From Candidatus Latescibacterota bacterium (GTDB taxonomy: Bacteria > Latescibacterota > UBA2968 > UBA8231), in the NCBI GenBank assembly GCA_965248265.1, contig CBDFJF010000002.1, forward strand, positions 3,616,001 to 3,680,000: a DNA stretch of 64,000 nt. Reading direction: 5' to 3'. The notes under the pieces were generated by a model. The model had not been told where the DNA came from, ran no database searches, and saw only the letters and a program-made list of their open reading frames with translations. Position numbers and translations under genes: made by a program. How positions within the stretch are numbered: position 1 is the first letter of the stretch; each line of letters starts with the position of its first letter. Below are positions 7,461 through 28,201 of the stretch, in pieces.

Positions 7461-7469
7461 ACCGGGCAC

Positions 7470-9703
7470 TTAGGGCGATTCTCCAGGGCGCTCTGGAGGG
7501 TTGTCGGCCGATGGCGTTACACGCATCAACTTGGCCAGATTCGCTTGGGCCCTGTCGTCAGCGGGATCCAGCCGCAGAGCCTGCCGGGTCACGCGCAGAG
7601 CCGATTCGAAGTCTCCTTTGGCGGCGAAGGCCGACGCGAGATTGTTGTAAATCCGGATGCTTCCCGCTTCAAGCAAGAGGGCTTTTTCGTATGAAGTGAT
7701 TGCCTTCACGATGCGTCCGGCATTTCGGTATGCCGTTGCCAGGTTTTCATGCGCGTCCGCGTCGGTCGAATCACGCTGCACCACCTCCTCATATGCCACT
7801 GCAGCCTCGCTCCAGTTAAGAGACCTTAACTCACTCTCTGCCAATGCTTTCCATATAGTAACCTGCTGCGGAAAATCGCTCAAAACCCGGCGATAAGCAG
7901 CGGTTGTTCCCACACCTTCATCGACCAACTCGTGAAGTTTGAGATTGACCGCCGCTTCGGTGTAGGTTGGATCGATCTCGACGGCTCTCTGCAGAGCCAG
8001 GCGAGCTTCCTCTCGTCGACCGAGTTCGCCCAATAGCAGTCCCAGATTGTTGAATGACGGAGCGTAGCCGGAATCCAAGCTGGCGGCTAGCCGATAAGAC
8101 TTCTCGGCTGCCGACAGACGCTCCTGTTGTTGATAGGCCCTGCCAAGATTGACCCATGCCTCAAGGTTGTGGGAATCCAGTCGTACAGCGCTCTCCAATA
8201 GTGCTACCGCTTGACTATTGCGTCCCAGCCGTGAGTAGAGTCTTCCCAGGTTGTTGTAGCTGCCGGACAACCCCGGGCTCAACCGACGCGCCTGCTCAAA
8301 GGCCTGTTCCGCCCGCTGCAGCAGGCCAAGATCCTCGTAAACCAATCCCACATTGCTCCATGACTTGCCGTAGCGAGGATTGATCTCGATAGATCGCTCG
8401 AAGGCCTCACGCGCGGCGGTCGACTCACCGCGCTCATACAGAGCGAGGCCGAGATTGCTCTGTACACGGAACATCCCCGGGGCTTTGGTGACAGCATCCG
8501 TCCACAAGGCGTGCTCGTCTACCCAGACCGCATTCCGTGCATGGGTATGCGCTGCACAAGTCAACAGCAGCACCACAGCAAGCGCGGCCGAGACGGGACT
8601 CGGGATCCTTGCAGATGAGCGGACCGCTGTACTCCTCCTCTTCCCTATCACTGCGCCGACGAGGATGAGCACACCCACGAAAGGCAGGTACAAGCGGTGC
8701 TCGTTGACGAGCACATTCAAGGGGAAGATGAAGGTCAGCAGCAGGCCGGCGAAGAACCAGAGTGTACCTATGGTCACCCATGGCAACGAGCCCGAGGACC
8801 TGGGCAACGAACCCGAGGACCTGATCGTCAGACCAAGCACGGTCACCACCAGCAAGGCGCTGGCCAGCACGGTCCCATCGGTGAGACTGGTGGCCTCCGT
8901 GAAGGCATGCTCGACGCTGAGACCGACTGGAACGGCAATCAGCTTCAAGTAAAAGACGATCGCTTTTGTCTGAGTAAACAGCTGTACGTCGAGTGGACGT
9001 ACATCCTGTCCAAGAGATCGCGGCAGGAAACCGTCGATCGTGATGACGACCAAGTAGACTACCGTCATCACGGCATATGGCAACACCACAAGCATCACCC
9101 GTTTCAGGTCCCTACCCCGGACAAGCTCAATCACAAAAACCAGGGGCAGGAGAACGACGGCCGCTGATTTGCACAGCAGTGCGAGTGTGTACAGGATACA
9201 GGCGGTTCCCCGCGCGCTCTTGAATCGATGGAAGTAGAGGGCACCCAACACTCCCAGTACGTACAAGAGCTCCGAACGGCTGCTGATATAGTTGACCAGC
9301 TGGGAATTAATAGGGTGAAGGGCAAACGTGGCCCCGACAACCAAGGCTTGAAAGCTGGACAAACCCAGCTCCGGGCAAAGGCAAACACGATGACGGCACA
9401 CATCGCATGGACGAGCAGATTGACCAGACGATAGCCGATGACCTCGTAACCGCCCAGGGCATGATTGACCGCGTAGGTGGCTTGAAGCAGCGGACGGTAC
9501 ATGGCCATGGAGGCTTCGTTTGAAAAAGTGCTGGAATCGAGGAAGAACGAGGGAACTGTAGCCAGCTCTCGGATGTGGTGGTTATCGACGATGGAATGTG
9601 AATCGTCGTAGTGGAACGAATTGGAGAGAGAGCCAGCGTAGCAGATGAAGGTGACGACTACCAGAGCGGCTGCTCCCGTCCAGAACGAGTCGAATCTCCT
9701 CAT
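7470..9703 (-). CDS. TMTC-like GT-C/TPR protein, copy 9 (frameshift near 9371, probably a sequencing error)
   Basis: ORF 9131-9727 carries FHYDDSHSIVDN..MYRPLL; ORF 7470-9401 carries HPINSQLVNYISSRSE, SVEH, PLNVLVNEHRLY and many TPRs; adding one G (CGGAG to CGGGAG) fuses them into ~744 aa. Confidence 0.82.
8782..8823. repeat. 21-nt tandem duplication (2 copies, 1 mismatch)
   Basis: GGCAACGAGCCCGAGGACCTG / GGCAACGAACCCGAGGACCTG encodes RSSGSLP twice. Confidence 0.85.
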
Positions 9704-9716
9704 CGATCGGACCCTG

Positions 9717-11618
9717 TCATGGTGCATTCAACCGCTCGAGCTGTTCCTCGACCCGCGACAAGGCCGTACGCGCGGGTTGGTACCTCGGCGCTGACCGGAC
9801 GGCTCGCTGGAGATAGCTGTGTGCCTTCGTCAGATGCTGCCTGGCATCATCCTCGCCTTTCTCAGAAGCAGCCATCTGTGCATGCAGGACGGCCAGGTTC
9901 TTGAGAGTCTTGGCGTCGTCGCCCTTGAGAGCAACTGCCTGCTCGTAGGCTTGGCGTGCTCTCTCCATATCACCAAGGTCCTGAAAGGCGACGCCGAGAT
10001 TTCCGTACGCCTGATAGTGATAGGGCCTCAGTGATACTGCTCGTTCCAGAGAGCTGATACTACGGCGCAAGAGCAGCATCCGCTCTCCCCCTCTCCGAGC
10101 TCGGCTCTGCTCAAGATAGATGACACCCAAATTGACACGCGCGTCGACGTAGTCAGGATTGAGATCCGTGGCCTGGCGGAACATGGCCTCTGCATCCGCA
10201 AGTTTTCCGCGCGTCAACAGAATGCTGCCGAGGTTGTTGAGGGCTCTCAACGACAAAGCACGATCACTTTGAATCTCGATGACCCGCTCGTACGCCCCGG
10301 CAGCTTCACGCCAATGCTGCCTCGCGGTCAGCTCATCGGTTGCTTGCAGGGCGGCATCCTTATGCGCGTTACCCAGGTACAGGTGTCCGCGTGGCATCAA
10401 CGGCGCCTTGTCCACGACATCCCCCCACAGACTGAAATCATCTGCCCACGCACGATTGCGCTGGACGCAGATCGCTGACAGAAAGAGTATTCCTAGAATG
10501 GGAACCAGTCTCCGGTGCCGCATACAATACCTGGACAGTAAGGTCCCCAGTAGTAGACAGAACAGAGCCGTCGGCAGGTACAGCCGTCGCTCGTTCACCA
10601 AAACGTTCAGGGGCATCGCCATCACCGGCAGCATGATCAGAGCGGACCAACCGAGGCCCACCAGAGCGATCTTGAAGGTGCCCCGGTGGCGGATGAGCCA
10701 CAGCAACCACAAGCCACTCAGGATCAATACCAGGGATACTATGATGAGTGGACTCAGCTGCTTCTGAACGAAGAACTGGTGCTCGACATTGAGGCGAACG
10801 GGGAAGACCGTCAGGTAGAGGTAGTAGCCGATCGCCTTCGTCTGGGTCAGTAGCTGTGCTGAAAAGTCACGCACGGGTGCTCCCAGAGAACGGGTCAGAT
10901 AGTCGTTGTGGGTTACCACTGCGAAGTGAATGATCATCAGTATCCAGAAGGGCACCTGGCGTCGAAAGAGTTGCGAGGCGGCTCGAAGTCCATGCCCGGG
11001 GACACGCTGCGTTAAACAAATCCAATCGTGTAACAGCAAAACCAGCGGTGCGGTCACCAGCGTCATCTTGGTCAGCAGACCGAGCTCGAACGTGATCCAG
11101 GCACCGTAAGGATGCCGCTCGACGTCACGCCTGCTGGCACGGATGTACAGGGCGAGCGTCAACAAATAGAGCGCGGCTGCCAGACTCTCGCTCCGACTGC
11201 TTATGTAGTTTACCGGCTCGGTCGCCAGCGGGTGCGTGACGAAGAGCAGGCCAGCGATAAGAGCGGCGTCCCGACGCCGGGGGTACAGCAGCATCGTCAA
11301 CCAGGCCACAACGCAAGCATTCACGGCGTGGATGAGGATGTTGATCAGCCGATACCCCAGGACATCGTAATCCCCCAACGAATGATTCAGCGCATAGGAG
11401 ACCAGCAGCAGCGGCCGGAACATGCCTCTGTCGACGTCGGCTGAAAAGGTCCCGAGGTCGGTGAAGAACAAGGGCACATTTGCCAGGCTTCGAACGCTGG
11501 GGTTTTCCACGATGGAATGGATGTCGTCATAGTGAAATCCATTGCCGAGCGCATTCCAATAGATGGCCAGGCAGACCGTCACGACCGCGACATACAGGAG
11601 CAGATAGTCTCTCTTCAT
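9717..11618 (-). CDS. TMTC-like GT-C/TPR protein, copy 8
   Basis: FHYDDIHSIVEN, MFRPLL, HPLATEPVNYISSRSE, NVEHQF, PLNVLVNERRLY, C-terminal TPRs; ATG at 11618 overlaps the upstream stop (ATGA). Confidence 0.88.
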   Translation of the reverse strand: MKRDYLLLYVAVVTVCLAIYWNALGNGFHYDDIHSIVENPSVRSLANVPLFFTDLGTFSADVDRGMFRPLLLVSYALNHSLGDYDVLGYRLINILIHAVNACVVAWLTMLLYPRRRDAALIAGLLFVTHPLATEPVNYISSRSESLAAALYLLTLALYIRASRRDVERHPYGAWITFELGLLTKMTLVTAPLVLLLHDWICLTQRVPGHGLRAASQLFRRQVPFWILMIIHFAVVTHNDYLTRSLGAPVRDFSAQLLTQTKAIGYYLYLTVFPVRLNVEHQFFVQKQLSPLIIVSLVLILSGLWLLWLIRHRGTFKIALVGLGWSALIMLPVMAMPLNVLVNERRLYLPTALFCLLLGTLLSRYCMRHRRLVPILGILFLSAICVQRNRAWADDFSLWGDVVDKAPLMPRGHLYLGNAHKDAALQATDELTARQHWREAAGAYERVIEIQSDRALSLRALNNLGSILLTRGKLADAEAMFRQATDLNPDYVDARVNLGVIYLEQSRARRGGERMLLLRRSISSLERAVSLRPYHYQAYGNLGVAFQDLGDMERARQAYEQAVALKGDDAKTLKNLAVLHAQMAASEKGEDDARQHLTKAHSYLQRAVRSAPRYQPARTALSRVEEQLERLNAP

Positions 11619-13665
11619 GAGCCTGATCTGGCCTGCAGCCGGCGGTAGCGGGAGATGGCGGCGGTACGGATATCCTCGTCGCTGCAATTGGTAATCAACC
11701 GCCGGTAAACCTGGGCAGCGGCCTCGAGATCCTTCGCCGTTTCCAACGCGTTGGCCAGTTGGAGGGCCCCGCTCCAATGGTTGGGATGGACTCGGACCAA
11801 TTCCTTGTTGACGGCCAAACTCTGCGCGTAGGCACCGGTCTCCCACAAGGTCGTGGTCAGACCCCAGAGAGCCTCAGGGCTGCGAGGGTCCACCATCAAT
11901 AACTGACGGCAAAGCTCGATGACCAACCCGTGCCGACCGTTTGCCTTCATCGAGCGGGTCATTGATGGCAGCTTGCCGTGGAGGCGAGTCAGATTGGCGC
12001 GTGCATCGGCGTTGGTGGGCTTTTGATCCAGGGCAGCCCGGTAGTAGAACGCAGCGCTGTCCGGCCTGCCGGATTCCTCGAATAAGGTCCCGAGGTTGTT
12101 GAGCGCCAGATCGAAATGTAGCTCGTCGAATCCACCAGTAGATAGTGGGTACGCGCTGAGTGCAGGTCACCGGCGTCCTGAAAGGTCCGCGCGGCATTGT
12201 AGCGCACGTCCGACCAGGCCGGGTTGGTCTCAAGCACATTCTGGTATATGGCCAGGGCCGTCTTCCACTGGCCCAGGTCACGGTGTGCACTCGCCAGGTT
12301 GTTGCTGGCTACGACATTGTCCGGATCCAATGCCAGCGCATCTTCGAAATGCACGATCGCCTGCCGGGGCCTGTCCTGTGCCCTGGCATAGTTCCCCAGG
12401 TAGACGTGAGGCTCTATCGCGGACGGGGATTGTCTCTTCGCGTTCGACCAGAGACTTCCCTCGTCGCTCCATACCGTGTTCTGCCGCACAACCAGCACCA
12501 TGAACAGCAGCCCGAGTACCGGTCCCGCCCAGAGTATCCCTCTGAGCGATTCAAACCGGCTCATTCCGAGTACCGCCAGCAACGCTCCAACCAGCGCGAG
12601 ATAGAGACGATGTTCGTTGACGAGCACGTTGAGCGGGACCACGAAGGTCGGCATCAGAACCACCCCGATCCAGGCCAGCCCGAAGCCGAGGAGCGCATGT
12701 TCGCTGCGGGTGTCGGCGCTGGTCCGCCTTCCTGCATACCACGCTATCACCACGAGCGTTCCGACACCGGCCAGAGCCAGCAGTACCGTTATATCCGCCA
12801 GGGATGACACGGTGAACGCGTGGTGAACGGACAGACGCGCCGGCATCACGACAAGCTTCAGATAGTACGGGAGGGCCTTGAGTTGGGTGCCGAGTTGTTC
12901 ACTCATCGAGCGCACCGGTTCCTCGACCAGGGCCGTGTTGACGAGTGACCGGATGTAGAGGAGGTAGGCGGTGGCCACGACGGCGTACGGCACGTACACC
13001 GACATTTGAGCGCGCAGCCGGCGACCGTCCAGGCGGTCAGTCAGCACGATCAGCAAAGGCAACACGATGCTGATTTCCTTTGAGCCCAGCGCCGCCGCGA
13101 AACAACCTACCGAGGCGATACGCGTCAGCAGCAGACGCCCGTCCGGTACCGATCTGTCCGGCTTTGAGCGCAGGTACAACCACAAGCTGACCATCATCAA
13201 GAAGCCAGCCATCAACTCGGAGCGGCTACTGATATAATTGACCGGCTCAGTGGCCAGTGGATGAACGGCGAACAGCATCCCTCCAAGCAGGGCCAGGCAA
13301 ACACTCACGCGCAGTTCGATGAACAGGAGCCAGACGGTAATACTCGCCAGTGCGTGCAGCAGAATGTTGATCAGATGATAGGACCAGGTCTCATACCCAC
13401 TCCAGGAGTGGTTCAGAGCGAAGGTGGCCAGTAGCAGAGGCCGGTACATCGCCTTCTCCTCATCCCTGGAGAAGTATTCGGGATGGGAGAAGAATTCGGG
13501 AATGCTCTCCAGGCTGCGAATGTGATCGTTCGTGACGATGGAGTGGCGATCGTCATACTGAAAGGCGTTGCCGATAGCGTTCGCATACATCACGGCGCAC
13601 ATCACCAACAAGAGCGCTATGGAAGCCAAGCGACTGCTGACGATGGTGGTGATCAGGGCTCTCAT
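11615..13665 (-). CDS. TMTC-like GT-C/TPR protein, copy 7 (frameshift near 12121, probably a sequencing error)
   Basis: FQYDDRHSIVTN, MYRPLL, HPLATEPVNYISSRSE; the TPR continues in another frame (HFDLALNNLGTLFEESGRPDSAAFYY..) into ORF 11615-11962. Confidence 0.82.
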
Positions 13666-15575
13666 CGCAATCGCCTCGAGAGAAATTGCAGACGCGCTGT
13701 CGCCTTCGCGTCATCCGGTGCGAGTCGGAGCGCGCGCTCGAAGGCGGCGCGTGCCTCCTGCCAGGCTTGAACACATCCGCTCGTATCTCCATTCGCCAGC
13801 CTGGCGCCGCCGACGGCGATCAGTACCTCCCCCAGGTTGCGTGGGTACAGGGCATCGTTCGGCGACAACTCGAGGGCGGCGCGATAGGATTCGGCGGCCT
13901 TCGAGAACTGCTTGGCGCCCGTATAGGCGTTGCCCAATTCGTTGAACACGTCATCCCCGGGTTGCAGCTCGGCCGCGCGTTCAAAGGCCTGCGCGGCGGC
14001 GGAGAAATCGGCTTTGTCGTACAGCAGCAAGCCCATATTGTAGTAGCCATCGGCGAAGTGCGGATGCAGGCGAAGCAATTGCTGGTAGGCTGTGATTGCC
14101 GATTCCCTGCGCCCGAGCTGTGAAAGCACCGTCGCCCTGCCGCTGAGTGCTTCCCTGTAGCTTGAATCAGAACCTAGGACGGTGTCGAACTCAACCATCG
14201 CCCTCTTCAGCACCGAGGAGTGAGTGGGGTCCTGCTGGTGTAAACTCAGGGCGTGCTCGAGGTACAGATTGGCCAGATTGGTGCGGGCAGCACGATGCGT
14301 CGACTCCAGCTTCAGCGCCCGATGAAAGGAGCGCTCGGCCCCGGCACGGTTTCCGGAAACCGCCTGGGCATTGCCCAGATGCACGTGGGGCCGCGCCATC
14401 AACGGGCTCTTGGCGACGGAGTCCTCCCACAGGGTCAATTCGCTTTCCCATACTGTATTGCGTGTTATGGTATGAGCCCCGAGGAGGACCACAAGGACGG
14501 GCCACAGGGCACTGTACCGCCCCTTGCCGATCCAGTGAGGCCACATCTTACCCACCAGCACTGCCAGTCCCGCAAGAGGCAGGTACAGCCGGTGCTCGTT
14601 TATTAGGACGTTCAGTGGCACAACCGTAGCCGGCAGCAATGCGATTAGCGCCCAGAAGAGCCAGAGGCGGGAATCCCCCTTCACGCGCAACCAGGCCAGC
14701 ACGACCACTGTACCTAACATCAGGGCACTGACGATGACGGTGCCGTCCAGTATGGACACCGACTCGGAAAACTGATGCTCAACATTGAGACCGACCGGCA
14801 CCAGCAACAGTTTGGTGTACAGGGTCAGCGCCTTGAGCTGAGTCCAACACTGCTCAGGCAACCCGCGTGGGGATTGGCTCACTGAAGTCGGCAGGAAACG
14901 GTTCCAGATCTGCAATGCAACGTACCCGGCTGACAGCAACCACAGCCAGATCGTGTTTGTCCTGCCTACGGGGTGCGGACCCTCGCGCCATACCCCCTGC
15001 ACCCATACCATGAATGGCAAGGTGATTACCATCTCTTTCGAAAGCAGTCCCAGTACGAAACAGATGGCAGCAGCGATCGAGGCCCGCGAACCGGCCGTGG
15101 CGAGCAAGCGGAAACTGGCCAGGTAGAAGCAGGCACCCAGCAACTCGGATCTGCTGCTGATATAGTTGACAGGCTCCGTCGCCACTGGATGCAGGGCGAA
15201 AAGGCAGGCCGCCCATTGCGCCCCCCTTGTAGTGCAACCGTTCTGGCGGGAGATACTCCACACCAGCAGTGAACACACAAAATGGATGATGGTATTGAGG
15301 ATGTGGTACCCGCTCACTCCATACTCGCCCAGGGCGTAGTTGACGGCGTAGCTCAACAACAGGACCGGTCGGTACATGGCCTTGTCGACGTCGCTGGAGA
15401 ACAGGGCCGGATCCGCGAAGAAGCTGGGAATGTTCGTCAGGCTGCGGATATGAGGGTTGGCGACGAGCGAATGAAAATCATCGTAATGGAAATTGCCGTT
15501 GAGGCTGTTCCCGTATGTGATCGCCACCACGACCCCGAGGAAGAGCGGGAAACGCCAACCGTGCAGCGCGCTCAC
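13662..15575 (-). CDS. TMTC-like GT-C/TPR protein, copy 6
   Basis: FHYDDFHSLVAN, MYRPVL, HPVATEPVNYISSRSE, NVEHQF, PLNVLINEHRLY, TPRs. Confidence 0.88.
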   Translation of the reverse strand: MSALHGWRFPLFLGVVVAITYGNSLNGNFHYDDFHSLVANPHIRSLTNIPSFFADPALFSSDVDKAMYRPVLLLSYAVNYALGEYGVSGYHILNTIIHFVCSLLVWSISRQNGCTTRGAQWAACLFALHPVATEPVNYISSRSELLGACFYLASFRLLATAGSRASIAAAICFVLGLLSKEMVITLPFMVWVQGVWREGPHPVGRTNTIWLWLLSAGYVALQIWNRFLPTSVSQSPRGLPEQCWTQLKALTLYTKLLLVPVGLNVEHQFSESVSILDGTVIVSALMLGTVVVLAWLRVKGDSRLWLFWALIALLPATVVPLNVLINEHRLYLPLAGLAVLVGKMWPHWIGKGRYSALWPVLVVLLGAHTITRNTVWESELTLWEDSVAKSPLMARPHVHLGNAQAVSGNRAGAERSFHRALKLESTHRAARTNLANLYLEHALSLHQQDPTHSSVLKRAMVEFDTVLGSDSSYREALSGRATVLSQLGRRESAITAYQQLLRLHPHFADGYYNMGLLLYDKADFSAAAQAFERAAELQPGDDVFNELGNAYTGAKQFSKAAESYRAALELSPNDALYPRNLGEVLIAVGGARLANGDTSGCVQAWQEARAAFERALRLAPDDAKATARLQFLSRRLR

Positions 15576-17760
15576 GGAGCCAACTCCCGCAGACGTGCAC
15601 GGGCATGATGATGATTGGCATCCCGACGCGGCCAGACTTCCAGAAAGTGGCGGTAAGCCATCGCGGCGGCCTGGCGTTGACCGACGGCATCCAGGCTCCT
15701 GGCAAGACCGGACAACGCACGGGCGTAGGTGGCATCGATGGCCAGTGCGCTTTTATAAGTGGAGATGGCTCTGCGGTGGCGACCGTTTGTTCGGAGCAGG
15801 TCAGCAAGCTCGGCGTAGTTCCTCTTCACTCCAGGTTCGAGTGCAATCGCGCGTTCGAATGACTCTTCCGCCGACGTTTCATCCCCCAACATCTTCCAAG
15901 CACGTCCAAGCGCCAGGTGAAACCGGCCGTTTTCCGGATCGTGCTCCAGAGCATGGTGCAGCGCTGTGCGAGCTTCAGCAGCACGTTCCAGATCCATGTA
16001 GGTGTCGGCCATGTTGGCGTAACATCGCCGACTCCGTTCTCCGGGCCGAGATCGATGGCCTTGCCATACATCTCCAGCGCAGCCTCATCATCCCCTCGAC
16101 TCGAATGGATGTTACCCAGGTTGTTGTAGGGTTCCGCCTGGCGCGGCAACAAGGCGATGGCTCTGCGAGCAGCCCTCTCTGCTCCATCCAGGTCTGCCAG
16201 CTGGAAAAGCAATTCTCCGTAATTTGCCCATATCGAGCCCCGTTGATCGTCGACCATCAAGGCCTTCTCATACCAGACTCTCGCCTGCGCCGGATCTCCC
16301 AGATCGCTGAACGCATCAGCCATGTTCTGGTAAATCTCCTCGTAGTCCGGGTAGCGTTCGAGGGCGCGGTGATACCAGTCGATGGCTTCCCGGGGCCTGC
16401 CTTGCCGATGGTGCAGGATGCCGATGTTGTTGTAGGCATCACCATGTCGCGGATCGATATCGATGGCGCGCTGGTAGGCGGCAAGGGCGTCCGATTCGCC
16501 GCCGCTCAGCTGTAGGGCCTTGCCGAGATTGGTCTGTACTCGGTACATGCGCGGCGCCTTCTGTGCCGCATCCCGCCACAAGGTCAACTCAGAAGCCCAC
16601 ACCTGATTGCGTTGCATGGAAGTGAGACACAACAGCGATAACCAGACGTACGAAAGCCGGCGCATCCTCCGACCCAGATAGAAGGCTGCAAACCAGGCGA
16701 ATGCGACCAGCGCCAGGTACAGACGACGCTCGTTCACGAGTACGTTCAGCGGCATCACCGAAACGGGTAGAATCACGACGGTAGTCCACACAGCCATAAA
16801 GGTCGCTGCGCGTCGCCGGCGTCCGATCCAGCAAACCAGACCGATGGACAGAATGAGCAGTCCTGCCATCCACACAGCGAAGGTAATCGACGTCGATTCC
16901 GCAAACTGATGCTCGACGTTCAGACCCACGGGCATGAACGCGAGCTTGAAGTAGTAGGCGGGAGCCTTGAGCTGCGTCAACAACTGGGTTCCCAATTCGC
17001 GGACGGGATTGGCGAGCGATCGCTCGAGAAACTCCGTGGACCGAAGCAGCATGAGGTAACCGCCCGCGACGAGCCAGTACCCAGCGTGATACCGGAACCA
17101 GGCGGAGCGCTGCTGCCGTTCTCCCTTAGCCGTCTTCATCAACCAGTCGGTAAGCAGTAGAACGGCAGGAAGCGTGACCACCGTCGATTTAGTCAACAGT
17201 CCCAATGCAAAGCAAACCAACGAGGCCAGTTCAAGTGCAGCCCGCAGCCGCGGATCTTCAGTCGCACCGCGCCGCCACAGCAGATGGAGGACCAGCGTTG
17301 CCAGGTAAAAGAACGTGGACATCAAATCCGAGCGGCCACTGATATAGTTTACCGGCTCGGCCGCCAACGGGTGCACGGCGAAGAGCAGGCCGGCGAATGT
17401 CGCCGCTCTCACCCGCTCCGGAACCTCAGTGAACAACAGGCCAAAAGCGACCCAGCACAGCAGCGCACAGCTGGCGTGCAAGAGGATGTTGAGGAGATGA
17501 TATCCGAACACCTGATACTCGCCCAGCGCGTAGTTGATGGCATAACTGACGAGCAAGAGCGGTCGGTACATGCTCTTGTCCGTATCACCGGAGAACATGG
17601 ATGGATCGATGAAGAAGGCCGGCAGGTTGGAAAGCGTCCGGACCGCGGGGTTGTCGACGATTGAATGATAGTCGTCGTAGTGGAAGCTACCCTGAAAAGC
17701 GTTGAAATAACACAGAATAACCACGACGAGAATGAGAAGCGGAATGGCGCGACTACTCAT
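15572..17760 (-). CDS. TMTC-like GT-C/TPR protein, copy 5 (frameshift near 16021, probably a sequencing error)
   Basis: FHYDDYHSIVDN, MYRPLL, HPLAAEPVNYISGRSD, PLNVLVNERRLY; one extra T (GTTAC to GTTTAC) gives DVYANMADTY and joins TPR ORF 15572-16012. Confidence 0.82.
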
Positions 17761-19723: not shown

Positions 19724-21462
19724 GATACCTCCAACACGGTTATCCTCTTGGGATTGGCCTCCGTCCCCCCCACAAATTCAGCCACGATCCGATAGCGCTC
19801 ATCCTGCCCGAGAAACTGCTGGATATAGAGCTTGCTGCGTTCGTGGTAATAATAGGCAGCGGTGCCGGGCGGAGGTGACTGACCGCTGAAAAACCGTGCG
19901 TACCCGGCGCTGGGCAGAATCACGTGCGAGACCTTCCATTCCCTCAACTCCTCGTAATCCATCCAGCGGCGGCGGAAGGTCTCCAGCGTCTTGGGGTCCC
20001 CGAGGTCGACGCCTCGATACGCGGGCGGAACCTGAGCCTGCTCACTGAAGTACTCCAGTGTTAGCTGGGTGTAGATGGGAAGCCGGCGACGGAGTGACTT
20101 GAGCTGCGCGAGGACATCCGGATGGGAGCGATTGGCCTCGATCTGTTGGCTCAGAAAGTTGCGGTGAATGTCCCCCTTCAGCGGTGGTGTATAGTCGATG
20201 CGGTAAACGCCGATGACGGAGCCGTCAGGAATGTTGGCCTCGATCCACTGACGGGCTTGCGAACGGACATCGGAATCTCCCAATCGTGTTCCTTCACCGG
20301 CTCCGGTCCACAATTGAGGTATGGAAATGCAGAGGAACAGGCCGACCCGGACTCGATTCGAGGTGGATGCCGTGATCTCGATCAGCATGCGCACGGCCAG
20401 GACGGCCGCCAGGGGAAACAGGAAGATCGCGTAGTGGATGCTTCCTTTGGGCAGCGAGCCTATGTACATGAAGGCGGGAATGACGACGGCCAGCAACAAC
20501 AGGTCGAGATCGCTCCTGCGATACATGGCAAACAGCACGCCAGCTACCAGCAGCACCCCCCAGATCATCTCGCGCTGTACAAGACCCCACAACGCTACCA
20601 GACGTGGCCACTCAATCGCGTGCATGCTGAACTGAAGATTGGACGTAACATTGAGGACCGCTTGCGAGTACTCGGTGAAGGACATCACCCAGTACGGCGA
20701 TCCGAGTAAGAATCCGGTTAATCCAGCCAGACCGAACACAGCAACGGAGCGCAGGCAGAAGGCGACGGCATCCGCCTCCTCCCGGCGGCGAGCGCGTAGG
20801 ATTGCGGCGGCCAGCATCCCAAACAGGACAAAGCCGGCGTTGTATTTCGTCGACACCGCCAAGCCGAGCAAGAGCCCTGCCAGCACACAGATCGAGCCTC
20901 TTCCCGACCTGAAAAAGACGATCACTGTTGCACAAGATGCCGTAGCCAGCAGTGCCATGGTCATGTCGGGAAGAGCGAAGCGCGAGTGGTTGGCAAGCGT
21001 CAACGACACGGCGGCAAACAGTGCTGCTCCAAGCCCAACTGGGCGTCCATAGGCATGATTGCCGAGAGCGTAGGTCACTGCGATCAATCCCGTGCCGGCA
21101 AGCACATTGACGATGCGCCCGACGAGGGCGAGCTGCGTCGGGACGAACAAATGGGTAAATGTTACCGAAGCGGCCAGGCTACCCACGTCTGGCATCAACT
21201 CAATGAGGTACGCGACGACCAGGGCGGCGCTGTACAGGTAGCTGTACAGCGCAGGGTAGTTGAAATGCTGCGGCTGCAGTGTCACCATATGGATGAACCT
21301 GACAGCATCCCTGGTGACGACACGCTCGTCCCCGGTCACAAAATCCGGGAATCCGTGAGACACCCCAAGGAGCCTGAGCACGAGGCCTGCCGTCAGGACG
21401 AGGCCGATCGCGACCGTAGGATCAATGGTAAATCTGGTGGGTTGTATTTCGCTCGTGCTCAC
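19720..21462 (-). CDS. ArnT/PMT_2-like (GT39/GT83-type) GT-C glycosyltransferase
   Basis: Acidic first loop HGFPDFVTGDE, FNYPALY, SRFALPD, GLAVSTKYN, many TM segments, C-terminal soluble domain (ARQWIEANIPDGS). Confidence 0.8.
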   Translation of the reverse strand: MSTSEIQPTRFTIDPTVAIGLVLTAGLVLRLLGVSHGFPDFVTGDERVVTRDAVRFIHMVTLQPQHFNYPALYSYLYSAALVVAYLIELMPDVGSLAASVTFTHLFVPTQLALVGRIVNVLAGTGLIAVTYALGNHAYGRPVGLGAALFAAVSLTLANHSRFALPDMTMALLATASCATVIVFFRSGRGSICVLAGLLLGLAVSTKYNAGFVLFGMLAAAILRARRREEADAVAFCLRSVAVFGLAGLTGFLLGSPYWVMSFTEYSQAVLNVTSNLQFSMHAIEWPRLVALWGLVQREMIWGVLLVAGVLFAMYRRSDLDLLLLAVVIPAFMYIGSLPKGSIHYAIFLFPLAAVLAVRMLIEITASTSNRVRVGLFLCISIPQLWTGAGEGTRLGDSDVRSQARQWIEANIPDGSVIGVYRIDYTPPLKGDIHRNFLSQQIEANRSHPDVLAQLKSLRRRLPIYTQLTLEYFSEQAQVPPAYRGVDLGDPKTLETFRRRWMDYEELREWKVSHVILPSAGYARFFSGQSPPPGTAAYYYHERSKLYIQQFLGQDERYRIVAEFVGGTEANPKRITVLEVS

Positions 21463-23375
21463 TGCGCCCCCGTCTCCAGAATTGCCAGCCGACGACGCGC
21501 ACTGGCAGCAGACGCCTCATCACCCTGCCACAGGGCTAGGAAACGACGATACGAAGAAGCCGCGGTCTGCTTGCGGCCAAGGCGCTCGTGCAGGAGACCG
21601 AGATTGTAATACGGCTTGGGATAGGTGGCCTCGTGCTTGATGGCATTTTCGTACGCGGCAATCGCTCGCTGCCACTCGCCCTGGCCCTCCAGAGCGCCAC
21701 CCAGATTGAAATGGATCCTTGCGGCTCGCGGTTTCATCACCAGCGCTCTTTCGAAAGAGGCCTCGGCCTGTTCATAGTCACCCAAAGCCAGGTAGGTTGT
21801 TCCAAGGTTGTTCAACAACTCGGCTCGGGAGCCGGCCAGAGTCAGCGCATTACGAAGAAGATCCAGTGCCTCGACATGCTTGCCGGAGCCGTTATACAGA
21901 GTCGCGAGATTGATCATCGCCTCCGGATAGGACGGCAGAATCGCCAGCGCCTGGGTGTACGCCGCCTCGGCACCTGGGGCGTCGCCGAGAAGCTTGCGGA
22001 CGTTGCCAAGATTGTTGAGTGCCGGCGCATTTGCGGGCTTAAGCTCGAGGGCTATCTCGAATTCAGAGCGGGCGGCATCTAGCCGACCCAGCTTGCGGTA
22101 GGCCACACCCAATCGCACGTGGGCCCGATCGGAAGCCGGTGCTTTAACAACCGCATCCTCCCAGAGGGTGAGCTCGGAAGCCCAAACGGTATTGCGCTGG
22201 ACGGTCAAGGTGACGAAGACACACAACGTCAGCGCGACCAGTGACCGAGATCTCCTGACCAGAGGTTTCTGGACCTGCCAGACCACGAAACCCATCAACA
22301 CGGCCACTGCCAGGTAGAGGCGTCTCTCCGTCACCAGAACGTTCAACGGTACGATAACCGTCGGCATCAGCGCCGCGCCGATCCAGGCGAGAAAAAGCAC
22401 CGAACGGTCACGGCGCCGAATCCCGCACCAGACGAGGTAGCCGATGGAAACGATGCAGAGGGCACTGAGCCAGACAACGAGCATTGCTCCGGTACTGGTG
22501 GCACTGAAGGCATGGTCGACCGTCGACGGATGCGGCAGCAGCAGCAGCTTGGCGTAGTAGACGAGGCCCTTACACTGCGTCATCAATTGTGTGCTCAGTG
22601 AGCGCACAGGAAAATCCAGCAAAGCCTCACTGATAAGCCCTCTGACTCCCCAGAGGTAGGCCAAACCGATTGACCAGTATGGCCATTGATTTCTCCAGAT
22701 TTGCGACCACAATGCCATTGAGTGTCGAGCCTGCGGGCTCCCATGGCGTGCTGCTTCGACCAGTGGCAGCATCAGGAGCATGGCTATTGCCGAAGATTTC
22801 GACATCAATGCGCCAACGAAAAAGACCACTGACAACCAGAGATTGCCCCGATGTGAGCTTGGCTTGATCCCGCCGTACAGGATCGCGCTTGCCAGAACGA
22901 AGACGGTAGCCAAAGACTCTGAACGACTGCTGATATAGTTCACGGGCTCGCTCGCCAGCGGGTGGACCCCGAAAAGGCAGCCGACAACAGCGGCGGCGGT
23001 CAGCCCCCATCCCCAGCCAACCAGCAGCCTCATCAGCAAACCAACACAACACAGGTGAATGGCGAGATTGACCAGGTGATAGCCCCGGGGGTTCAGCTCC
23101 CCCAAACTGAAATTGAACGCATAGCTGAGCACGACGAACGGGCGGTACATCTCGCTGCCGGGATTACGCGAAAAGGTCTGCGGATCGGTGAAGAAATTGA
23201 CAACATTGTCGAGTGAGCGAATGTGTGGATTCTCGGTCAGCGAGTGCTCGTCATCGAAGTGGAATGCGTTGTCGAGGGAATTCCAATACGTCAGGGTTAC
23301 TACAGCAAACACGATGGCAAACACGGCAGCCGCGAGACCGAGGGAGCCGATGCCGTTGACGCGTTTCACCCTCAA
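21459..23375 (-). CDS. TMTC-like GT-C/TPR protein, copy 3
   Basis: FHFDDEHSLTEN, MYRPFV, HPLASEPVNYISSRSE, TVDH, PLNVLVTERRLY, TPRs. Confidence 0.88.
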   Translation of the reverse strand: MRVKRVNGIGSLGLAAAVFAIVFAVVTLTYWNSLDNAFHFDDEHSLTENPHIRSLDNVVNFFTDPQTFSRNPGSEMYRPFVVLSYAFNFSLGELNPRGYHLVNLAIHLCCVGLLMRLLVGWGWGLTAAAVVGCLFGVHPLASEPVNYISSRSESLATVFVLASAILYGGIKPSSHRGNLWLSVVFFVGALMSKSSAIAMLLMLPLVEAARHGSPQARHSMALWSQIWRNQWPYWSIGLAYLWGVRGLISEALLDFPVRSLSTQLMTQCKGLVYYAKLLLLPHPSTVDHAFSATSTGAMLVVWLSALCIVSIGYLVWCGIRRRDRSVLFLAWIGAALMPTVIVPLNVLVTERRLYLAVAVLMGFVVWQVQKPLVRRSRSLVALTLCVFVTLTVQRNTVWASELTLWEDAVVKAPASDRAHVRLGVAYRKLGRLDAARSEFEIALELKPANAPALNNLGNVRKLLGDAPGAEAAYTQALAILPSYPEAMINLATLYNGSGKHVEALDLLRNALTLAGSRAELLNNLGTTYLALGDYEQAEASFERALVMKPRAARIHFNLGGALEGQGEWQRAIAAYENAIKHEATYPKPYYNLGLLHERLGRKQTAASSYRRFLALWQGDEASAASARRRLAILETGAQ

Positions 23376-24559
23376 AGCGCCTGTATGCGGCGTGCGAGGG
23401 AAAGAAACTGCGGAGCCGCGGCGTAGTGATCCCTGCGTTCGATTATCCGGTTGTGAAAGGCCTTCCTCCGGTCCCGGTCCACCATCAGAACCATTTTTTC
23501 GAGCAGATCCTCCACGGAAGCGGACTTCGCCACCACCCCGAACTCCTCACGCTCTATCAACCTGCTGGCGGCCCCATCCGGCAGGGCAGCGACGACGGGT
23601 CGTGCATGGGCTATGTACTCGTAGAGCTTGCCTGGTACGGCGTAAGAGAACCTGGAGGAGGCCAGTGAAAGAAAGCCGACATCGGCCTGCTGCAGGGCAG
23701 CGGAAACCTGTCCAGAGCTGAGCAAGCCGCCGTATTCAACACCTCCCCGCTGTAGGTGTTGGCCCAGCGTCTGTTTCAAATAGAAGTTTTCTGGACCAAA
23801 CACGGTAACGCGAACCCTGTTTCGCAACTCGGGATGTCGTTTGCGCAGCTCCCCCGTCGCCGCGCATAACAGTTCCAACCCCTGAGCCGGCGAGATGGCC
23901 CCCGCGTAGACGAAGTGCGTGTCCTCGTGATCGCGAAAGGACAGTGCCTTCGCATCAACCTCATCCCAGTAGCCGTTGGCGGTGACCTGCAGCTTCTCTG
24001 CCGGTAACCCGTAGGTCGCTGACAACGATTGGCCGATCTCCTCGGTGGCCACGGAAACCAGGGCGGCACGGTCGAGGGCTCGCCTTTCCCAGAAGGCTGC
24101 GAGTGGTTTCTGCAACGTGGATTTGAGCCCGAGGTGATCATCGCGGTAATCGAGGACCAGGCGCGCGCCCGTCCGCCGGGAGGCCATGTACCCGGCGATG
24201 TGATCGGTCAAGGGTGGGTACACACTGACGATGGTGTCTTCGCTTGCTGCCGCCACCTTCCCCACACGAGCGGCCGCAGACGACACCCAGTTTACATGCG
24301 GGCAAGGCACCACGCCCGCGCGGTGCAGGAGCTCTCCTCCCAAATGCCAGGGGAAAGCACGTACCCTGTGCACGGGCAAATCCGCATCGTCTCCCAGCAG
24401 GTCCGTATCATCGACGAACGCCCCAAGAGCTCGTGACACGTTACCATGGGTTACAACCTCAACATCCAGACCTCCATCAGCCAACAACCGGGCAAACTTG
24501 TAGCGCCGGTAGGTCCGCGCCAGTGGCGGATAATGACAGGTAATGAAGCACGTCTTCAT
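23372..24559 (-). CDS. GT4 (GT-B) glycosyltransferase
   Basis: FITCHYPP, LVLDYRD, FVYAGAI, VPGKLYEYIAHARPVV. Confidence 0.85.
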   Translation of the reverse strand: MKTCFITCHYPPLARTYRRYKFARLLADGGLDVEVVTHGNVSRALGAFVDDTDLLGDDADLPVHRVRAFPWHLGGELLHRAGVVPCPHVNWVSSAAARVGKVAAASEDTIVSVYPPLTDHIAGYMASRRTGARLVLDYRDDHLGLKSTLQKPLAAFWERRALDRAALVSVATEEIGQSLSATYGLPAEKLQVTANGYWDEVDAKALSFRDHEDTHFVYAGAISPAQGLELLCAATGELRKRHPELRNRVRVTVFGPENFYLKQTLGQHLQRGGVEYGGLLSSGQVSAALQQADVGFLSLASSRFSYAVPGKLYEYIAHARPVVAALPDGAASRLIEREEFGVVAKSASVEDLLEKMVLMVDRDRRKAFHNRIIERRDHYAAAPQFLSLARRIQAL

Positions 24560-26394
24560 GGTACCTTCACGCCTGATCGTGACAAGCGCTCAATAGCCTT
24601 TGCAGCCCGGTCGCCGAATCCGGCGTACTCCTCGTGGCCCTGCAGCAAGTCACGGGCCCGAGCAAATCCGTGCACGGCTCCATCGGTGTCACCGAGGCGC
24701 TCTCTGATACTCGCCAGGTTGAACCACGCCCCACCTAACTCCGGATCGCGTTCGTCCTTCCAGTACAGAGAATCACGGACAGCTTGTTCGTACTGCTTCG
24801 CCGCCTCGTCGTATCGCTGGGACGCTTCAAACGCCTGGCCGAGATTGTTGCGCGCCAGGACGAAATGAGGGTCGAGTTCGAGAGCGCGTTCGAAGAAGCT
24901 TACCGCCTCGGTGAGGTCACCGGAGCGCTGTCTGAGATTACCCAGATTGTAATAGACTCCTGGGAAGCTCGAACTGTGCTTGAGCGCTTTGCGGTAGGCA
25001 TCCTCGGCTCCCGTCATGTCACCTTGGCTCTTGTAAAGGTTGCCGACGGCATTCCAGGCCTCGGCATTGTCAGGTTTCAAGCGCAACCCCTGGTTGAGCT
25101 CTCGCAGAGCCTCCTCCATCCTTCCAGCACGATCGTAGGCCAAGCCAAGATTCATTCGCGCCCGATGCATTGCCGGAGCCTTCGCCACCGCGTCCTCCCA
25201 CAGGCTCACGTCATCCGCCCACACCTGGTTGCGTTGAAGATTCAGCAGGCAAAACACGGCAACGACGGCAATGCCCATGGCGTGTACTCGCCTGCTCGCA
25301 GGCGCAATCCGTGTGGCCCATCGCTGCCACAACCAGCATGCGCCCAACAGCAAGCCTGCACTCGCCAGGTACATGCGACGTTCACTGACCAGAATGTTGA
25401 GCGGCATGACGGACGCCGGTGCCAGGGTGGCGATGAACCAAGCCCAACAGAAAAACAGCACCCTGCGGCAAGCAAGGACAGTGACGATGGAGATGGAAAC
25501 AAGGAAAGCAAACGCCAGCAGCACTTCCGGCGAGAATGGGCTCTTCGCCACCGAAAACTGGTGCTCGATGCTGCCGTCCACGGGAACCATCGTCAGCTTG
25601 AGGTAGTAGACGAAGCCTTTGAGCTGAGTCCAGGCTTGTGTCACGAACGAGCGTGGCCGGCCCTCGAGTGAACTACCCAAAAAGCGGTTGGCCGAAATCA
25701 GTGCGAGATAGAGGCCGGCTGCCAACCACAGGTACCAGTACCGCCACATCCCGGAGGCAGCCTGCCGCACACCATACCTGCAAAAGTCAAGCAAGGCAAC
25801 GACGAACGGCAGGGTTATGGCGATCGACTTGGCCAATAGGCCCAGCACGTAGGCCGTGGTTGTGATTGCGGCATGAGGACGTGACCTGGCGTTCCCGATG
25901 AGCGTGGCGAATCCAACCAGAAAACAGGTGGCGGCCAACAATCCCGACCGGCTACTGATATAATGAATGAGCTCCGAGTGCATGGGATGGCACAGGAACA
26001 CGAAGCCAGCACCGACCGCGATGGTAAGAGAGGCGAAGAGGCGGCGGGCAATCAGACACACCGCAAAACTGGCGATTACGTGCAGGAAGAGGTTGATGAT
26101 CCGAAATCCCAATACTTGCTGCCCTGAAACAGAGTAGTTGAGGGCATACGTGGTCAGCAGGACAGGTCTGTACATAAAACCGGAAGGATGGGACGAGAAC
26201 GTGCCCGGATCGACGAAGAAGCTGGGGACGTTGGCCAGCGACCGAATGTGAGGGTTGTACTGGACAGAATGGTGATCGTCATAGTGAAATGGATCATTGA
26301 GCGCCTGGAAGTATAGCACGGCGGCGAGCGCGCTGAGTGCAATGAATACGAGGATCGGACGGTCGACTTCCCCATTGCGCGTGCGGTCAGTCAT
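24556..26394 (-). CDS. TMTC-like GT-C/TPR protein, copy 2
   Basis: FHYDDHHSVQYN, MYRPVL, HPMHSELIHYISSRSG, SIEHQF, PLNILVSERRMY, TPRs. Confidence 0.87.
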   Translation of the reverse strand: MTDRTRNGEVDRPILVFIALSALAAVLYFQALNDPFHYDDHHSVQYNPHIRSLANVPSFFVDPGTFSSHPSGFMYRPVLLTTYALNYSVSGQQVLGFRIINLFLHVIASFAVCLIARRLFASLTIAVGAGFVFLCHPMHSELIHYISSRSGLLAATCFLVGFATLIGNARSRPHAAITTTAYVLGLLAKSIAITLPFVVALLDFCRYGVRQAASGMWRYWYLWLAAGLYLALISANRFLGSSLEGRPRSFVTQAWTQLKGFVYYLKLTMVPVDGSIEHQFSVAKSPFSPEVLLAFAFLVSISIVTVLACRRVLFFCWAWFIATLAPASVMPLNILVSERRMYLASAGLLLGACWLWQRWATRIAPASRRVHAMGIAVVAVFCLLNLQRNQVWADDVSLWEDAVAKAPAMHRARMNLGLAYDRAGRMEEALRELNQGLRLKPDNAEAWNAVGNLYKSQGDMTGAEDAYRKALKHSSSFPGVYYNLGNLRQRSGDLTEAVSFFERALELDPHFVLARNNLGQAFEASQRYDEAAKQYEQAVRDSLYWKDERDPELGGAWFNLASIRERLGDTDGAVHGFARARDLLQGHEEYAGFGDRAAKAIERLSRSGVKVP

Positions 26395-28201
26395 TGCTGT
26401 TCCCCAATGCATTCAGGGAATCAGCCTTGCGCGCCGCTGTGCCGGCGTATATTGCGCCGCTAAAGCCTGTCGCTATTTCGCGATAGGCATCCACCGCCCC
26501 GCTGACGTTGCCTTCACGCTCATACGCGATCCCCAGGGCCATCAGAGTCTCAGCAGTGCGTTCAACCTCAAGCGCACCTTGTAGACAGGTGATAGCGAAA
26601 TCGACCTGGCCATTCAATAACGCCAACAGCCCCTGATTGTGCAGGGACTTCGCATCCTCCCCTAACTTCGGCTGGAAGGCAAGGAGACCCTCCAAAGCCT
26701 CCCGCGCCTTGACGTACGTCGAGTCAAACCGAAGGGCGGTCTGATAGGCCTGGATGGCCTCTTGCGACCGTCCCATCGTCAACAGGGTGGAACCGATGTT
26801 GTTGTAAGTGACGACCCGGTCGAGACCGCTGATTAGGGAGGGATTCACCTGCAGGGCGGTGTAATAGGATTGCAGAGCCTCTGCGTACTTACCGCTCTTC
26901 TTCAGACCATCACCCAGATAGATGTGAGGCCGCGGCATGCCCGATCCCTTCTTGACCGCGTCCGCCCAGAGGGTCTGGCTGCTCTGCCAGATGCTTACCC
27001 GCACCCTGTCGTGCAGGGTGAACGAGACGGCCAACAGGATGACGATCGACCCAACCAGAAGAGTGTGCTCCCGGCTGTGCCGTGCGACCAAGAGAGCCGC
27101 GACCATCGCCAGCGCGATCGAGGGCAGGTACAGTCTGTGCTCGTTGACGAGCACGTTCAGCGGTATGATCAGCGTCGGCAGCAGAGTCACGAATGGCCAC
27201 AATATCCAGAACACACCGGAGGAATCCCCGGTCCTAACCACACCTATCCAGAGCAGAGTGCCGATCGATAGCAGCAGCAAGACTCCCCCTATCACCGCAT
27301 TCTCCGTGAAGGCGTGGCTGAGATCGAACTGATGCTCCACGGAAAGCGGGTACGGTATCATCAGCAGTTTCAGGTAGTATGTCAGAGCCTTGATCTGAGT
27401 CCACAGCTGTGTCCCCATTCCACGCACCGGTGCGTCGACGACAGCCTGATGCAGCATCTGGCGCACTAGCAAAAGATACACCAGTGAGACAACCCAGTAG
27501 GGCCACTGAACACGCCACAGGTGGCTGATCCGTGTGCGGAGATCCGCCACCGAGCGCATCAGCTCGTACAGGAAAAGGGCCGCAGGCAAGGTGATGCCGA
27601 CAGCCTTGGACAGCAGCGCCGCTGCGTAGGCGGCGACGGAGATCATCATCCACAAACTCCGAGGCGAATTCGCCACGCTCGTGCGCAGATACGCGTGGAA
27701 CGCGATCAAAAAAAAGACCGCGCACATCGACTCCGAGCGGCTGCTGACATAGGCGACTGCTTCGGCGTTGACAGGATGCAGACCGAAGACGATTCCGGCC
27801 GCCACTGCGCCCCAATTACTATGCGTAACGAACAGCGCCAGTAGCGCAACCAGACAGGTGGCCGCCGCGTGCAAGACGAGATTGGTCCAATGAAACCCGC
27901 CGCCATCCTGTCCATGAAGCTGGTAGTCGACGGCATGAGAGAGCAACACCAAAGGCCGGTACATGGCACTGCGTGGATCTTCGCTGAACATCTCGGGGTG
28001 CGAGAAATAAGCGGGCACATTGCTCAAAGAGCGGATATGGGGGTTCTCAACGATTGAGTGGAAATCATCGTATTGAAACGGGACATCTGAGACGCCAGAG
28101 TACACAAGAAGAACCACCGCGGTGAGAGACAAACAAACGAGAAACCGCCCGCCGTGGGAGTCTAGCACCAGCCCTGATCCGTAGCTCTTGAATGACTGCA
28201 T
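26387..28201 (-). CDS. TMTC-like GT-C/TPR protein, copy 1
   Basis: FQYDDFHSIVEN, MYRPLV, HPVNAEAVAYVSSRSE, SVEHQF, PLNVLVNEHRLY, TPRs. Confidence 0.88.
   Translation of the reverse strand: MQSFKSYGSGLVLDSHGGRFLVCLSLTAVVLLVYSGVSDVPFQYDDFHSIVENPHIRSLSNVPAYFSHPEMFSEDPRSAMYRPLVLLSHAVDYQLHGQDGGGFHWTNLVLHAAATCLVALLALFVTHSNWGAVAAGIVFGLHPVNAEAVAYVSSRSESMCAVFFLIAFHAYLRTSVANSPRSLWMMISVAAYAAALLSKAVGITLPAALFLYELMRSVADLRTRISHLWRVQWPYWVVSLVYLLLVRQMLHQAVVDAPVRGMGTQLWTQIKALTYYLKLLMIPYPLSVEHQFDLSHAFTENAVIGGVLLLLSIGTLLWIGVVRTGDSSGVFWILWPFVTLLPTLIIPLNVLVNEHRLYLPSIALAMVAALLVARHSREHTLLVGSIVILLAVSFTLHDRVRVSIWQSSQTLWADAVKKGSGMPRPHIYLGDGLKKSGKYAEALQSYYTALQVNPSLISGLDRVVTYNNIGSTLLTMGRSQEAIQAYQTALRFDSTYVKAREALEGLLAFQPKLGEDAKSLHNQGLLALLNGQVDFAITCLQGALEVERTAETLMALGIAYEREGNVSGAVDAYREIATGFSGAIYAGTAARKADSLNALGNSND

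Follow-up and report, generated by a model that had tools for sequence, protein, structure and literature searches.

A conserved, ordered array of nine TMTC-like GT-C/TPR genes, putative protein O-glycosyltransferases, in a family of Latescibacterota

The animal proteins TMTC1-4 (CAZy GT105, Pfam TMTC_DUF1736) are protein O-mannosyltransferases of cadherin domains. Together with TMEM260 (GT117, DUF2723), which O-mannosylates IPT domains, they glycosylate particular protein folds, and their loss causes disease. To our knowledge, glycosyltransferases of fold class C (GT-C) that bear tetratricopeptide repeats (TPRs) are functionally known only from animals, namely TMTC1-4 and TMEM260. In the passages that deal with these families, the characterised enzymes are described as acting on proteins (PMC7801869, PMC10214176); the first of the two papers mentions TMTC homologues "even among prokaryotes", without a study of them there, and the second notes distant bacterial homologues of TMEM260. 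Here we describe an array of nine TPR-bearing GT-C genes at positions 7470-28201 of a 64,000-nucleotide stretch of DNA from a Candidatus Latescibacterota bacterium (contig CBDFJF010000002.1), the whole of which is referred to below as the window. We put the probability that the encoded enzymes O-glycosylate secreted or surface proteins at about 0.5, by analogy and because the characterised TPR-bearing GT-Cs are protein-specific and the neighbourhood of the array, with its giant cargo of the type IX secretion system (T9SS), is conserved.

The array lies on the minus strand and consists of eleven tightly packed genes. Nine of these are paralogues, which we call c1, c2, c3, c4, c5, c6, c8, c10 and c11 (Table 1). 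The open reading frames (ORFs), their translations and their alignment agree on this number, which a first-pass annotation of the window had proposed, and on the common strand. In every copy, an N-terminal membrane domain some 390 residues long precedes the repeats which that annotation had also described; TPR families of Pfam score above cutoff in the C-terminal part of all nine. Compared with the first copy, identities are 28-37% for the full-length proteins and 36-44% within the membrane domain. Adjacent genes overlap by 4 to 26 nucleotides, and the array is one translationally coupled operon. The first-pass picture of a tandem array is right in the number of copies, but a GT4 gene (23372-24559) and a PMT_2-type GT-C gene (19720-21462) are interleaved with them. 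Two other details hold only if breaks in the reading frames of c1, c3 and c5 are read through: lengths of up to 745 residues (as sequenced there are only six whole ORFs; read through, the broken copies reach some 683-752 residues) and the stop/start overlaps c3/c2 (ATGA) and c5/c4 (GTGA). The paralogue set also extends beyond 7470-28201. The genome has 16 matches to the membrane-domain profile. Besides the nine copies, of which c1 is counted in two pieces, they comprise three copies 0.1-9 kb past the window end and three elsewhere.

The fold of the membrane domain was assessed from a model of c4 that AlphaFold2 made with 66 sequences as input, with a mean predicted local distance difference test score (pLDDT) of 93.6 and a predicted template modelling score (pTM) of 0.88. 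According to DSSP, about 11 long helices extend up to residue ~376-379 of the model, after which the TPR superhelix begins; a hydropathy count of membrane helices, which gave 5 to 10 between copies, is crude and too noisy for use. An exhaustive structure search (VIA) matched residues 1 to ~405 of the model to ArnT (5f15) and archaeal AglB (3waj), both with a Z-score of 20.9, followed by ALG12 (Z 19.4), human STT3 (18.6), Pmt4 (18.5), Pmt1 (18.4) and PglB (16.7). Because of these matches, the modelled membrane domain is established as a GT-C fold, and the GT-C plus TPR architecture that had been read from the sequence is confirmed at the level of the model. The Z-scores fail to discriminate among GT-C families. 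With the whole c4 model, a Foldseek search against the PDB yielded TPR proteins only, and the full-length profile likewise found only TPR chains among the PDB sequences.

ArnT (GT83), which transfers aminoarabinose from undecaprenyl-phosphate to lipid A, is a bacterial, periplasm-facing GT-C with a lipid-phosphate donor, as the window proteins would also be. It is a joint best structural match (327 residues aligned, root-mean-square deviation 4.3), and one of the GT2 proteins of the locus has an ArnC-type model among its best hits. The enzymes might thus modify an envelope lipid, either lipid A or another glycolipid, as ArnT does, with the TPR domain serving only as a scaffold. We consider this highly improbable: nine conserved, specialised paralogues are hard to square with a single lipid substrate, ArnT lacks TPRs, and there is no match to it at the sequence level. 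ArnT further differs in its lipid acceptor; sequence identity to it is 10%, with no match at the level of hidden Markov models (HMMs).

The eight intact membrane domains have 44 invariant columns in common. These include D32, D33, H35 and S36 (FHYDDxHS), M67, R69 and P70 (MYRP), H129, P130, E134, Y138, S140, R142 and S143 (HPxxxEPVNYISSRSE), K180, H267, F269, and P320, L321, E327, R329 and Y331 (PLNVLVNE(H/R)RLY). The residues listed are likewise strictly or almost strictly conserved when 60 homologues of other organisms are added to the alignment. D32 and D33 are found in all eight domains and in 66 of 66 homologues, as well as in the N-terminal piece of c1, so that the DD dyad is indeed kept in all nine copies. 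The pattern (M/F)(Y/F)RP is retained in the homologue alignment, with R69 and P70 invariant. K180 lies in the consensus LLSKSxxITLP and is followed by a glutamate only in c3 and c4. Near the end of the domain, ERRLY or ERRMY is present in c2, c5, c8 and c10, and EHRLY in the remaining copies. The motif [VI][ED]H, given in the first-pass annotation for all copies, occurs in eight of the nine; c3 has VHH.

These motifs were compared with the seven motifs (Table 4) and the quoted segments of PMC7801869, among them KSSVIASLLFAVHPIHT of TMTC3 and SHKSYRPLCVLTSFRLN of TMTC1. As far as that table and those segments extend, six of the seven TMTC motifs have positional counterparts in the window copies, which bears out the suggested motif-level likeness to TMTC1-4. 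Both sides share an N-terminal GT-C domain of about 11 helices, predicted for the window proteins, followed by TPRs. The DD of loop 1 is present in the window copies. SHKSYRP and the segment following it correspond to (K/R)xxMYRPLLLxSYAxN, in which the pattern YRP-L..(S/T)(Y/F)..N has its counterpart, whereas the S-H-K before YRP is not kept (K or R stands three residues before the Y in six of the nine copies). LLFAVHP in the third transmembrane helix (TM3) is matched by LLFAVHPLA(T/A)E, and the basic-x-acidic motif of loop 2 by R-S-E. KE(T/Q)xxT in loop 3 corresponds in part to SK(E/S)xxIT, with K....T in both. ERxxY corresponds to E(R/H)RLY ahead of the tenth helix (TM10). In contrast, the DW of the TM7-TM8 loop is replaced by (E/D)H (HH in c3), and PxxP by PxxxxP. 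The loop of ArnT that corresponds to the one with (E/D)H carries an acid-plus-His metal site, HEH, as quoted in PMC7801869. The window proteins also differ from TMTC in being bacterial and, by analogy, periplasmic, and in occurring as 9 to ~15 tandem copies per genome as opposed to four dispersed vertebrate genes. At the level of architecture and motifs, the window proteins look TMTC-like.

With regard to curated sequence families, the picture is different. Two of the HMM searches that had been suggested gave no support: PF08409 (TMTC_DUF1736), the model of the DUF1736 loop, matches none of the eight membrane domains, even at E up to 10, and neither does PMT_2. Formal membership of the TMTC family is unsupported because of the PF08409 result. 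Scans of the copies found no model in Pfam or NCBIfam that covers the membrane domain. A protein-language-model search nevertheless placed the eukaryotic DUF1736 cluster closest among the named families (0.92; 187 of 256 features), other named GT-C families scoring at most 0.86, and 4 of 120 homologues among the matches listed bear the JGI name "protein O-mannosyl-transferase". In the representative-cluster search, only bacterial-type members were seen among the matches listed, without a direct sequence link to animal TMTC.

Two other families were considered and rejected. Fungal and actinobacterial PMT/POMT enzymes (GT39) have the GT-C fold and carry out protein O-mannosylation from polyprenyl-phosphate mannose. 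However, PF02366 and PF13231 have no above-cutoff match in the eight domains, the window copies bear TPRs, and MIR is not among their Pfam hits. TMEM260 resembles the window proteins in that its GT-C module precedes a C-terminal module of variable kind, but PF11028 (DUF2723) is not among the hits of the eight domains at E up to 10, no TMEM260-like match was obtained in Pfam, and the language-model score is 0.81.

The membrane domain itself is widespread. Among 1.84 billion representatives, its profile matches 111,143 clusters at E<=0.001, 86,503 at 1e-10 and 26,360 at 1e-30. Public records of close relatives are titled as metagenome-assembled genomes of Latescibacterota, Gemmatimonadetes/Gemmatimonadota or Handelsmanbacteria. 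A match at 1e-20 is present in 39 of 41 genomes (40 relatives and the genome of the window), and many genomes of the same family have 12-23 matches arranged head to tail. Close matches (1e-60) are concentrated in this family: in a phylum-wide sample, 20 of its 29 genomes have them, as against 1 of the 71 genomes from twelve other families.

A tree of 73 membrane domains, taken from the arrays of seven family genomes and from the window (quick IQ-TREE run, support by the Shimodaira-Hasegawa-like approximate likelihood ratio test, SH-aLRT), resolves into nine orthogroups. In eight of them, each of the eight genomes is represented by a single member; the c11 orthogroup has six members, because two copies were at or beyond the limits of the fetched sequence. 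Support is 100 for c1, c6 and c10, 99 for c2, c3 and c8, 93 for c5, 91 for c4 and 86 for c11. The order c11-c10-[GT4 or AsnB]-c8-c6-c5-c4-c3-c2-c1 is identical in all seven other genomes, and lepA follows c1 in the five of them in which this flank was fetched. The phylogeny and synteny comparison proposed in the first-pass annotation yielded nine supported orthogroups in one fixed order. Residues near the catalytic motifs vary between the orthogroups and are constant within each, such as Q in place of E in HP...Q of c1, FQYDDRHS and VHH in c3, VDH in c6 and SERR in c10. The orthogroups, the fixed order and the orthogroup-specific residues together indicate, on sequence grounds, that the duplications are older than the split of these genera and that each copy has been retained for a role of its own. 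The array is a conserved feature of a bacterial family and not an oddity of one genome.

The slot between c10 and c8 holds a GT4 gene in three genomes (G008, G021 and G011) and an AsnB-type amidotransferase gene in four (G023, G024, G012 and G014). The PMT_2-type gene between c8 and c6 was found in the window only, the seven other genomes having no gap that would fit such a gene. In G011, a Mutator-family transposase gene (L074:2222-3556) is located in the gap between c10 and the GT4 gene of the array.

In the assembly, c1, c3 and c5 are each broken by a 1-nucleotide frameshift and six copies are whole ORFs; the notion that all nine may be active is consequently not upheld for the strain as sequenced. 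The break sites (9369, 12118 and 16023) are not homopolymer runs, and the TPR regions of c3 and c5 run on in another frame to stops at 11615 and 15572, respectively. Over 7452-16400, the window is matched exactly by Logan contigs from two runs of a single sample (depths 10.8 and 4.9). This sample is probably the source of the genome assembly, and its contigs are therefore no independent proof of the frameshifts. Contigs of another sample represent a strain with about one difference per 20 bases (~95% identical), which has one extra base at 9369, 12118 and 16023. As these are exactly the three break points, c1, c3 and c5 read through in that strain. The same low-depth contigs show other indels: 2 nucleotides of c3 are missing at 12374 (one run, depth 3.1), and 1 nucleotide of c4 is missing at 14675 (one run, depth 4). 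A protein from a different assembly (P0001), 97% identical to c4, ends after ~439 residues and has a tyrosine at the invariant His267 (H267Y). Elsewhere in the window, the ORFs of 4.5 kb and 6.4 kb are unbroken, and a short GT4 gene at 28244-29188, checked for a further frameshift, has a match in a single frame only. In our view, strain-specific inactivation is somewhat more likely than a consensus error.

Such findings could mean that much of the array is decaying or redundant, with the frameshifted copies as pseudogenes and the array as a relic without collective function. This would agree with the frameshifts in three of nine copies at sites that are not homopolymers, with the exact match of the contigs from the two likely source-sample runs, and with the different indels in c3 and c4 and the truncated P0001 in other strains. 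It is nonetheless very unlikely. One-to-one orthologues in the same order in eight genomes of at least six genera, with all catalytic motifs kept, point to long purifying selection; moreover, the ~95% identical strain has the intact base at all three sites, and the source-sample contigs are tied to the assembly, so a sequencing error is possible.

The array is part of an accessory glycan locus of ~75 kb. Downstream of lepA follow hemW, thrB and the genes of a polysaccharide export protein and a chain-length determinant, the last two with weak matches to models of XrtA systems. Upstream of the array are a GT4-type gene and a methyltransferase gene, and then, at 30173-40969, genes for a PGA_cap protein, three AsnB-type amidotransferases, an M55 D-aminopeptidase-like protein and a polysaccharide deacetylase, a content that would fit a glycan bearing amide-linked or amino-acid groups. 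Further upstream are a PMT_2-like membrane protein, more GT4s, methyltransferases, an oxidoreductase, two GT2s and finally two giant proteins. The best NCBIfam models for the GT2 at 47175-48446 are AglJ (1e-28), ArnC-type (1e-28), PgfS (2e-25) and Dol-P-hexose transferase (6e-24), all below their curated cutoffs. An HNH-endonuclease-like ORF (48133-48798) overlaps the long N-terminal extension of this GT2 ORF, which probably starts further downstream.

Both giant proteins contain almost nothing recognisable besides a T9SS type A sorting domain, and relatives encode dozens of proteins with the same C-terminal domain. Past the window end there is a second cluster, with three TMTC-like genes and a third PMT_2-type GT-C gene, the first gene of which is divergent from the giant gene at 56359-62766. 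Orthologues of this 2135-residue giant (59-61% identical) adjoin two or three TMTC-like genes in G008, G021, G012 and G023. Among the 34 family genomes scored for both, a relative of the giant is present in 21 of the 23 that have close TMTC-like genes and in none of the 11 that do not. Presence and absence of the TMTC-like genes and the giant split within three genera, and several genomes without both are single contigs. The TMTC-like genes and the giant thus look like an accessory island that is gained and lost as a block.

Table 1. Array genes and other features of the locus discussed in the text. Positions refer to the window, except for the second cluster (L064).
Feature	Position	Strand	Evidence or remarks
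c11, GT-C + TPR, 604 aa, whole	26387-28201	-	ORF, TPR hits, FQYDDFHS, MYRP, SVEHQF, NEHRLY
c10, GT-C + TPR, 618 aa, whole	24556-26412	-	ORF, TPR, motifs; orthogroup support 100
GT4 (GT-B) inside array, 4-nt overlap each side	23372-24559	-	Glyco_trans_4_4, Glyco_trans_1_4
c8, GT-C + TPR, 638 aa, whole	21459-23375	-	ORF, TPR, motifs; orthogroup support 99
PMT_2-type GT-C without TPR, 580 aa, outside the nine	19720-21462	-	PF13231 39.5 bits, cutoff 26.1
c6, GT-C + TPR, 656 aa, whole	17753-19723	-	ORF, TPR, motifs; orthogroup support 100
c5, GT-C + TPR, frame broken near 16023	15572-17760	-	ORF as sequenced 15826-17760
c4, GT-C + TPR, 637 aa, whole; copy used for structure model	13662-15575	-	AlphaFold2 pLDDT 93.6
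c3, GT-C + TPR, frame broken near 12118	11615-13665	-	ORF as sequenced 11989-13665
c2, GT-C + TPR, 633 aa counted from ATG at 11618, whole	9717-11618	-	orthogroup support 99
c1, GT-C + TPR, frame broken in membrane domain near 9369	7470-9727	-	pieces 9131-9727, 7470-9401
lepA, conserved array boundary adjoining c1	5522-7396	-	Pfam
Polysaccharide chain-length determinant (559-1728) and export protein (1739-3397)	559-3397	-	Wzz/GNVR; Poly_export/SLBB
PMT_2-like multi-pass membrane protein, 653 aa	36964-38925	-	PF13231 26.0 bits, cutoff 26.1
GT2, candidate polyprenyl-phosphate sugar synthase	42107-43240	-	NCBIfam AglJ 4e-23, PpgS 1e-13, below cutoffs
GT2, candidate polyprenyl-phosphate sugar synthase	47175-48446	-	NCBIfam hits, all below cutoffs
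Giant secreted protein, 1483 aa, T9SS sorting domain	51654-56105	-	domain scans
Giant secreted protein with T9SS type A sorting domain, 2135 aa; candidate acceptor	56359-62766	-	Por_Secre_tail, FlgD_ig
Second cluster genes	L064:3-1766, 4772-6859, 7340-9247, 1747-3831	+, -, -, -	three TMTC-like genes and PMT_2-type GT-C

Polysaccharide genes abound in the locus, which makes a glycan a serious alternative to a protein as acceptor; we regard this as tentative but quite possible. The same GT-Cs, with lipid-linked donors, would then work on an exopolysaccharide or lipid-linked oligosaccharide in the periplasm, each taking one step in its extension or in the addition of side-branch sugars, in the way of the ALG3/9/12/6/8/10 series in the lumen of the endoplasmic reticulum or the mycobacterial Emb/Aft arabinosyltransferases. 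The TPR domain would bind the polymer or provide a docking link to the export machinery. The chain-length determinant and export protein at 559-3397 are in keeping with this, as are the five GT4-type genes, two GT2s, three AsnB-type amidotransferases, polysaccharide deacetylase and methyltransferases of the locus. Outside the window genome, arrays are found flanked by genes for a DegT aminotransferase and GT4s, with AsnB or GT4 inside. Nine fixed, ordered steps would also suit an assembly line, and ALG12 is among the best structural matches, although its Z-score does not set it apart from ArnT, AglB or PMT. We know of no glycan-extending GT-C that bears TPRs, which counts against this alternative, and the TPR-bearing GT-Cs that have been studied, TMTC1-4 and TMEM260, act on proteins according to the published passages cited above.

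In the reading that we prefer, with secreted or surface proteins as acceptors, the long operon would encode nine anciently diverged, individually specialised, periplasm-facing GT-C glycosyltransferases. Each would have about 11 membrane helices. The first outer loop, with the DD dyad, would provide the catalytic base or a metal site, and a conserved ring made up of the R of MYRP, K180, H267 and E327/R329/Y331 may hold a polyprenyl-phosphate sugar. We infer that the donor is a polyprenyl-monophosphate sugar, which the two ArnC/DPM1-like GT2s of the locus would make at the cytoplasmic side of the membrane, with flipping to follow. The C-terminal TPR superhelix is predicted to face the periplasm, from the eleven helices counted in the model and by analogy with TMTC, and would present the acceptor. 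Proteins would be O-glycosylated as they are by animal TMTC1-4, the leading candidates being the giant T9SS-sorted proteins of the same accessory locus, and the labour would be divided such that each paralogue serves a different site, domain class or sugar.

Several points weigh against this proposal. The protein acceptor is suggested by analogy and gene neighbourhood, and that neighbourhood includes Wzz, a Wza-like protein, the GT4-type genes, the amidotransferases and the deacetylase. TPR domains occur in polysaccharide secretion proteins too. The side of the membrane on which the TPRs are placed depends on a helix count in a predicted model. At the sequence level, the membrane-domain profile finds no chain among the PDB sequences at E up to 10, and, in addition to the lack of PF08409 matches, PMT matches only one of the eight domains, with an E-value of 0.0015, below cutoff. 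The co-occurrence with the giant may reflect the gain and loss of an island as a block; since the related genomes are not independent and the genes are physically linked, it is no proof of an enzyme-substrate pair. Finally, not all nine copies are needed in every strain, given the three frameshifted copies here and the truncated c4 with H267Y in a 97% identical strain.

A bolder version of the proposal would combine the nine enzymes with the three extra copies and the three PMT_2-type GT-Cs into one system, the bacterial counterpart, and possibly the evolutionary source, of the domain-specific O-mannosylation of animals. The TPR domain of each paralogue would read its own fold or site on giant, T9SS-exported, adhesin-like proteins, to which the enzyme would add its own sugar. 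We think this unlikely. If it were true, the knock-out of single copies, which differs by strain (c1, c3 and c5 in this one, c4 or c3 in others), would rearrange the glycans of the cell surface, for example under pressure from phages or grazers.

In the full-text literature searched, with subscription journals and supplements outside its scope, there is no report of bacterial arrays of TPR-bearing GT-Cs or of functional work on bacterial TMTC-like proteins, and within that scope the first-pass view that no such bacterial locus has been characterised stands. Papers on related lineages mention the abundant TPR proteins, in the passages concerned, only as "eukaryotic-like" or hypothetical. The architecture is already known from TMTC; the new elements are its setting in bacteria, the lack of a curated model, the ordered array of nine genes and the location in an island. 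Most members of the membrane-domain family are labelled in their sources only as "tetratricopeptide repeat protein", and many entries under this label are membrane glycosyltransferases. An ordered nine-gene array that is kept across genera would offer a tractable bacterial model for acceptor choice by TPR-bearing GT-Cs, and the locus points to an extensive, so far overlooked system of periplasmic glycosylation in a lineage without cultured members.

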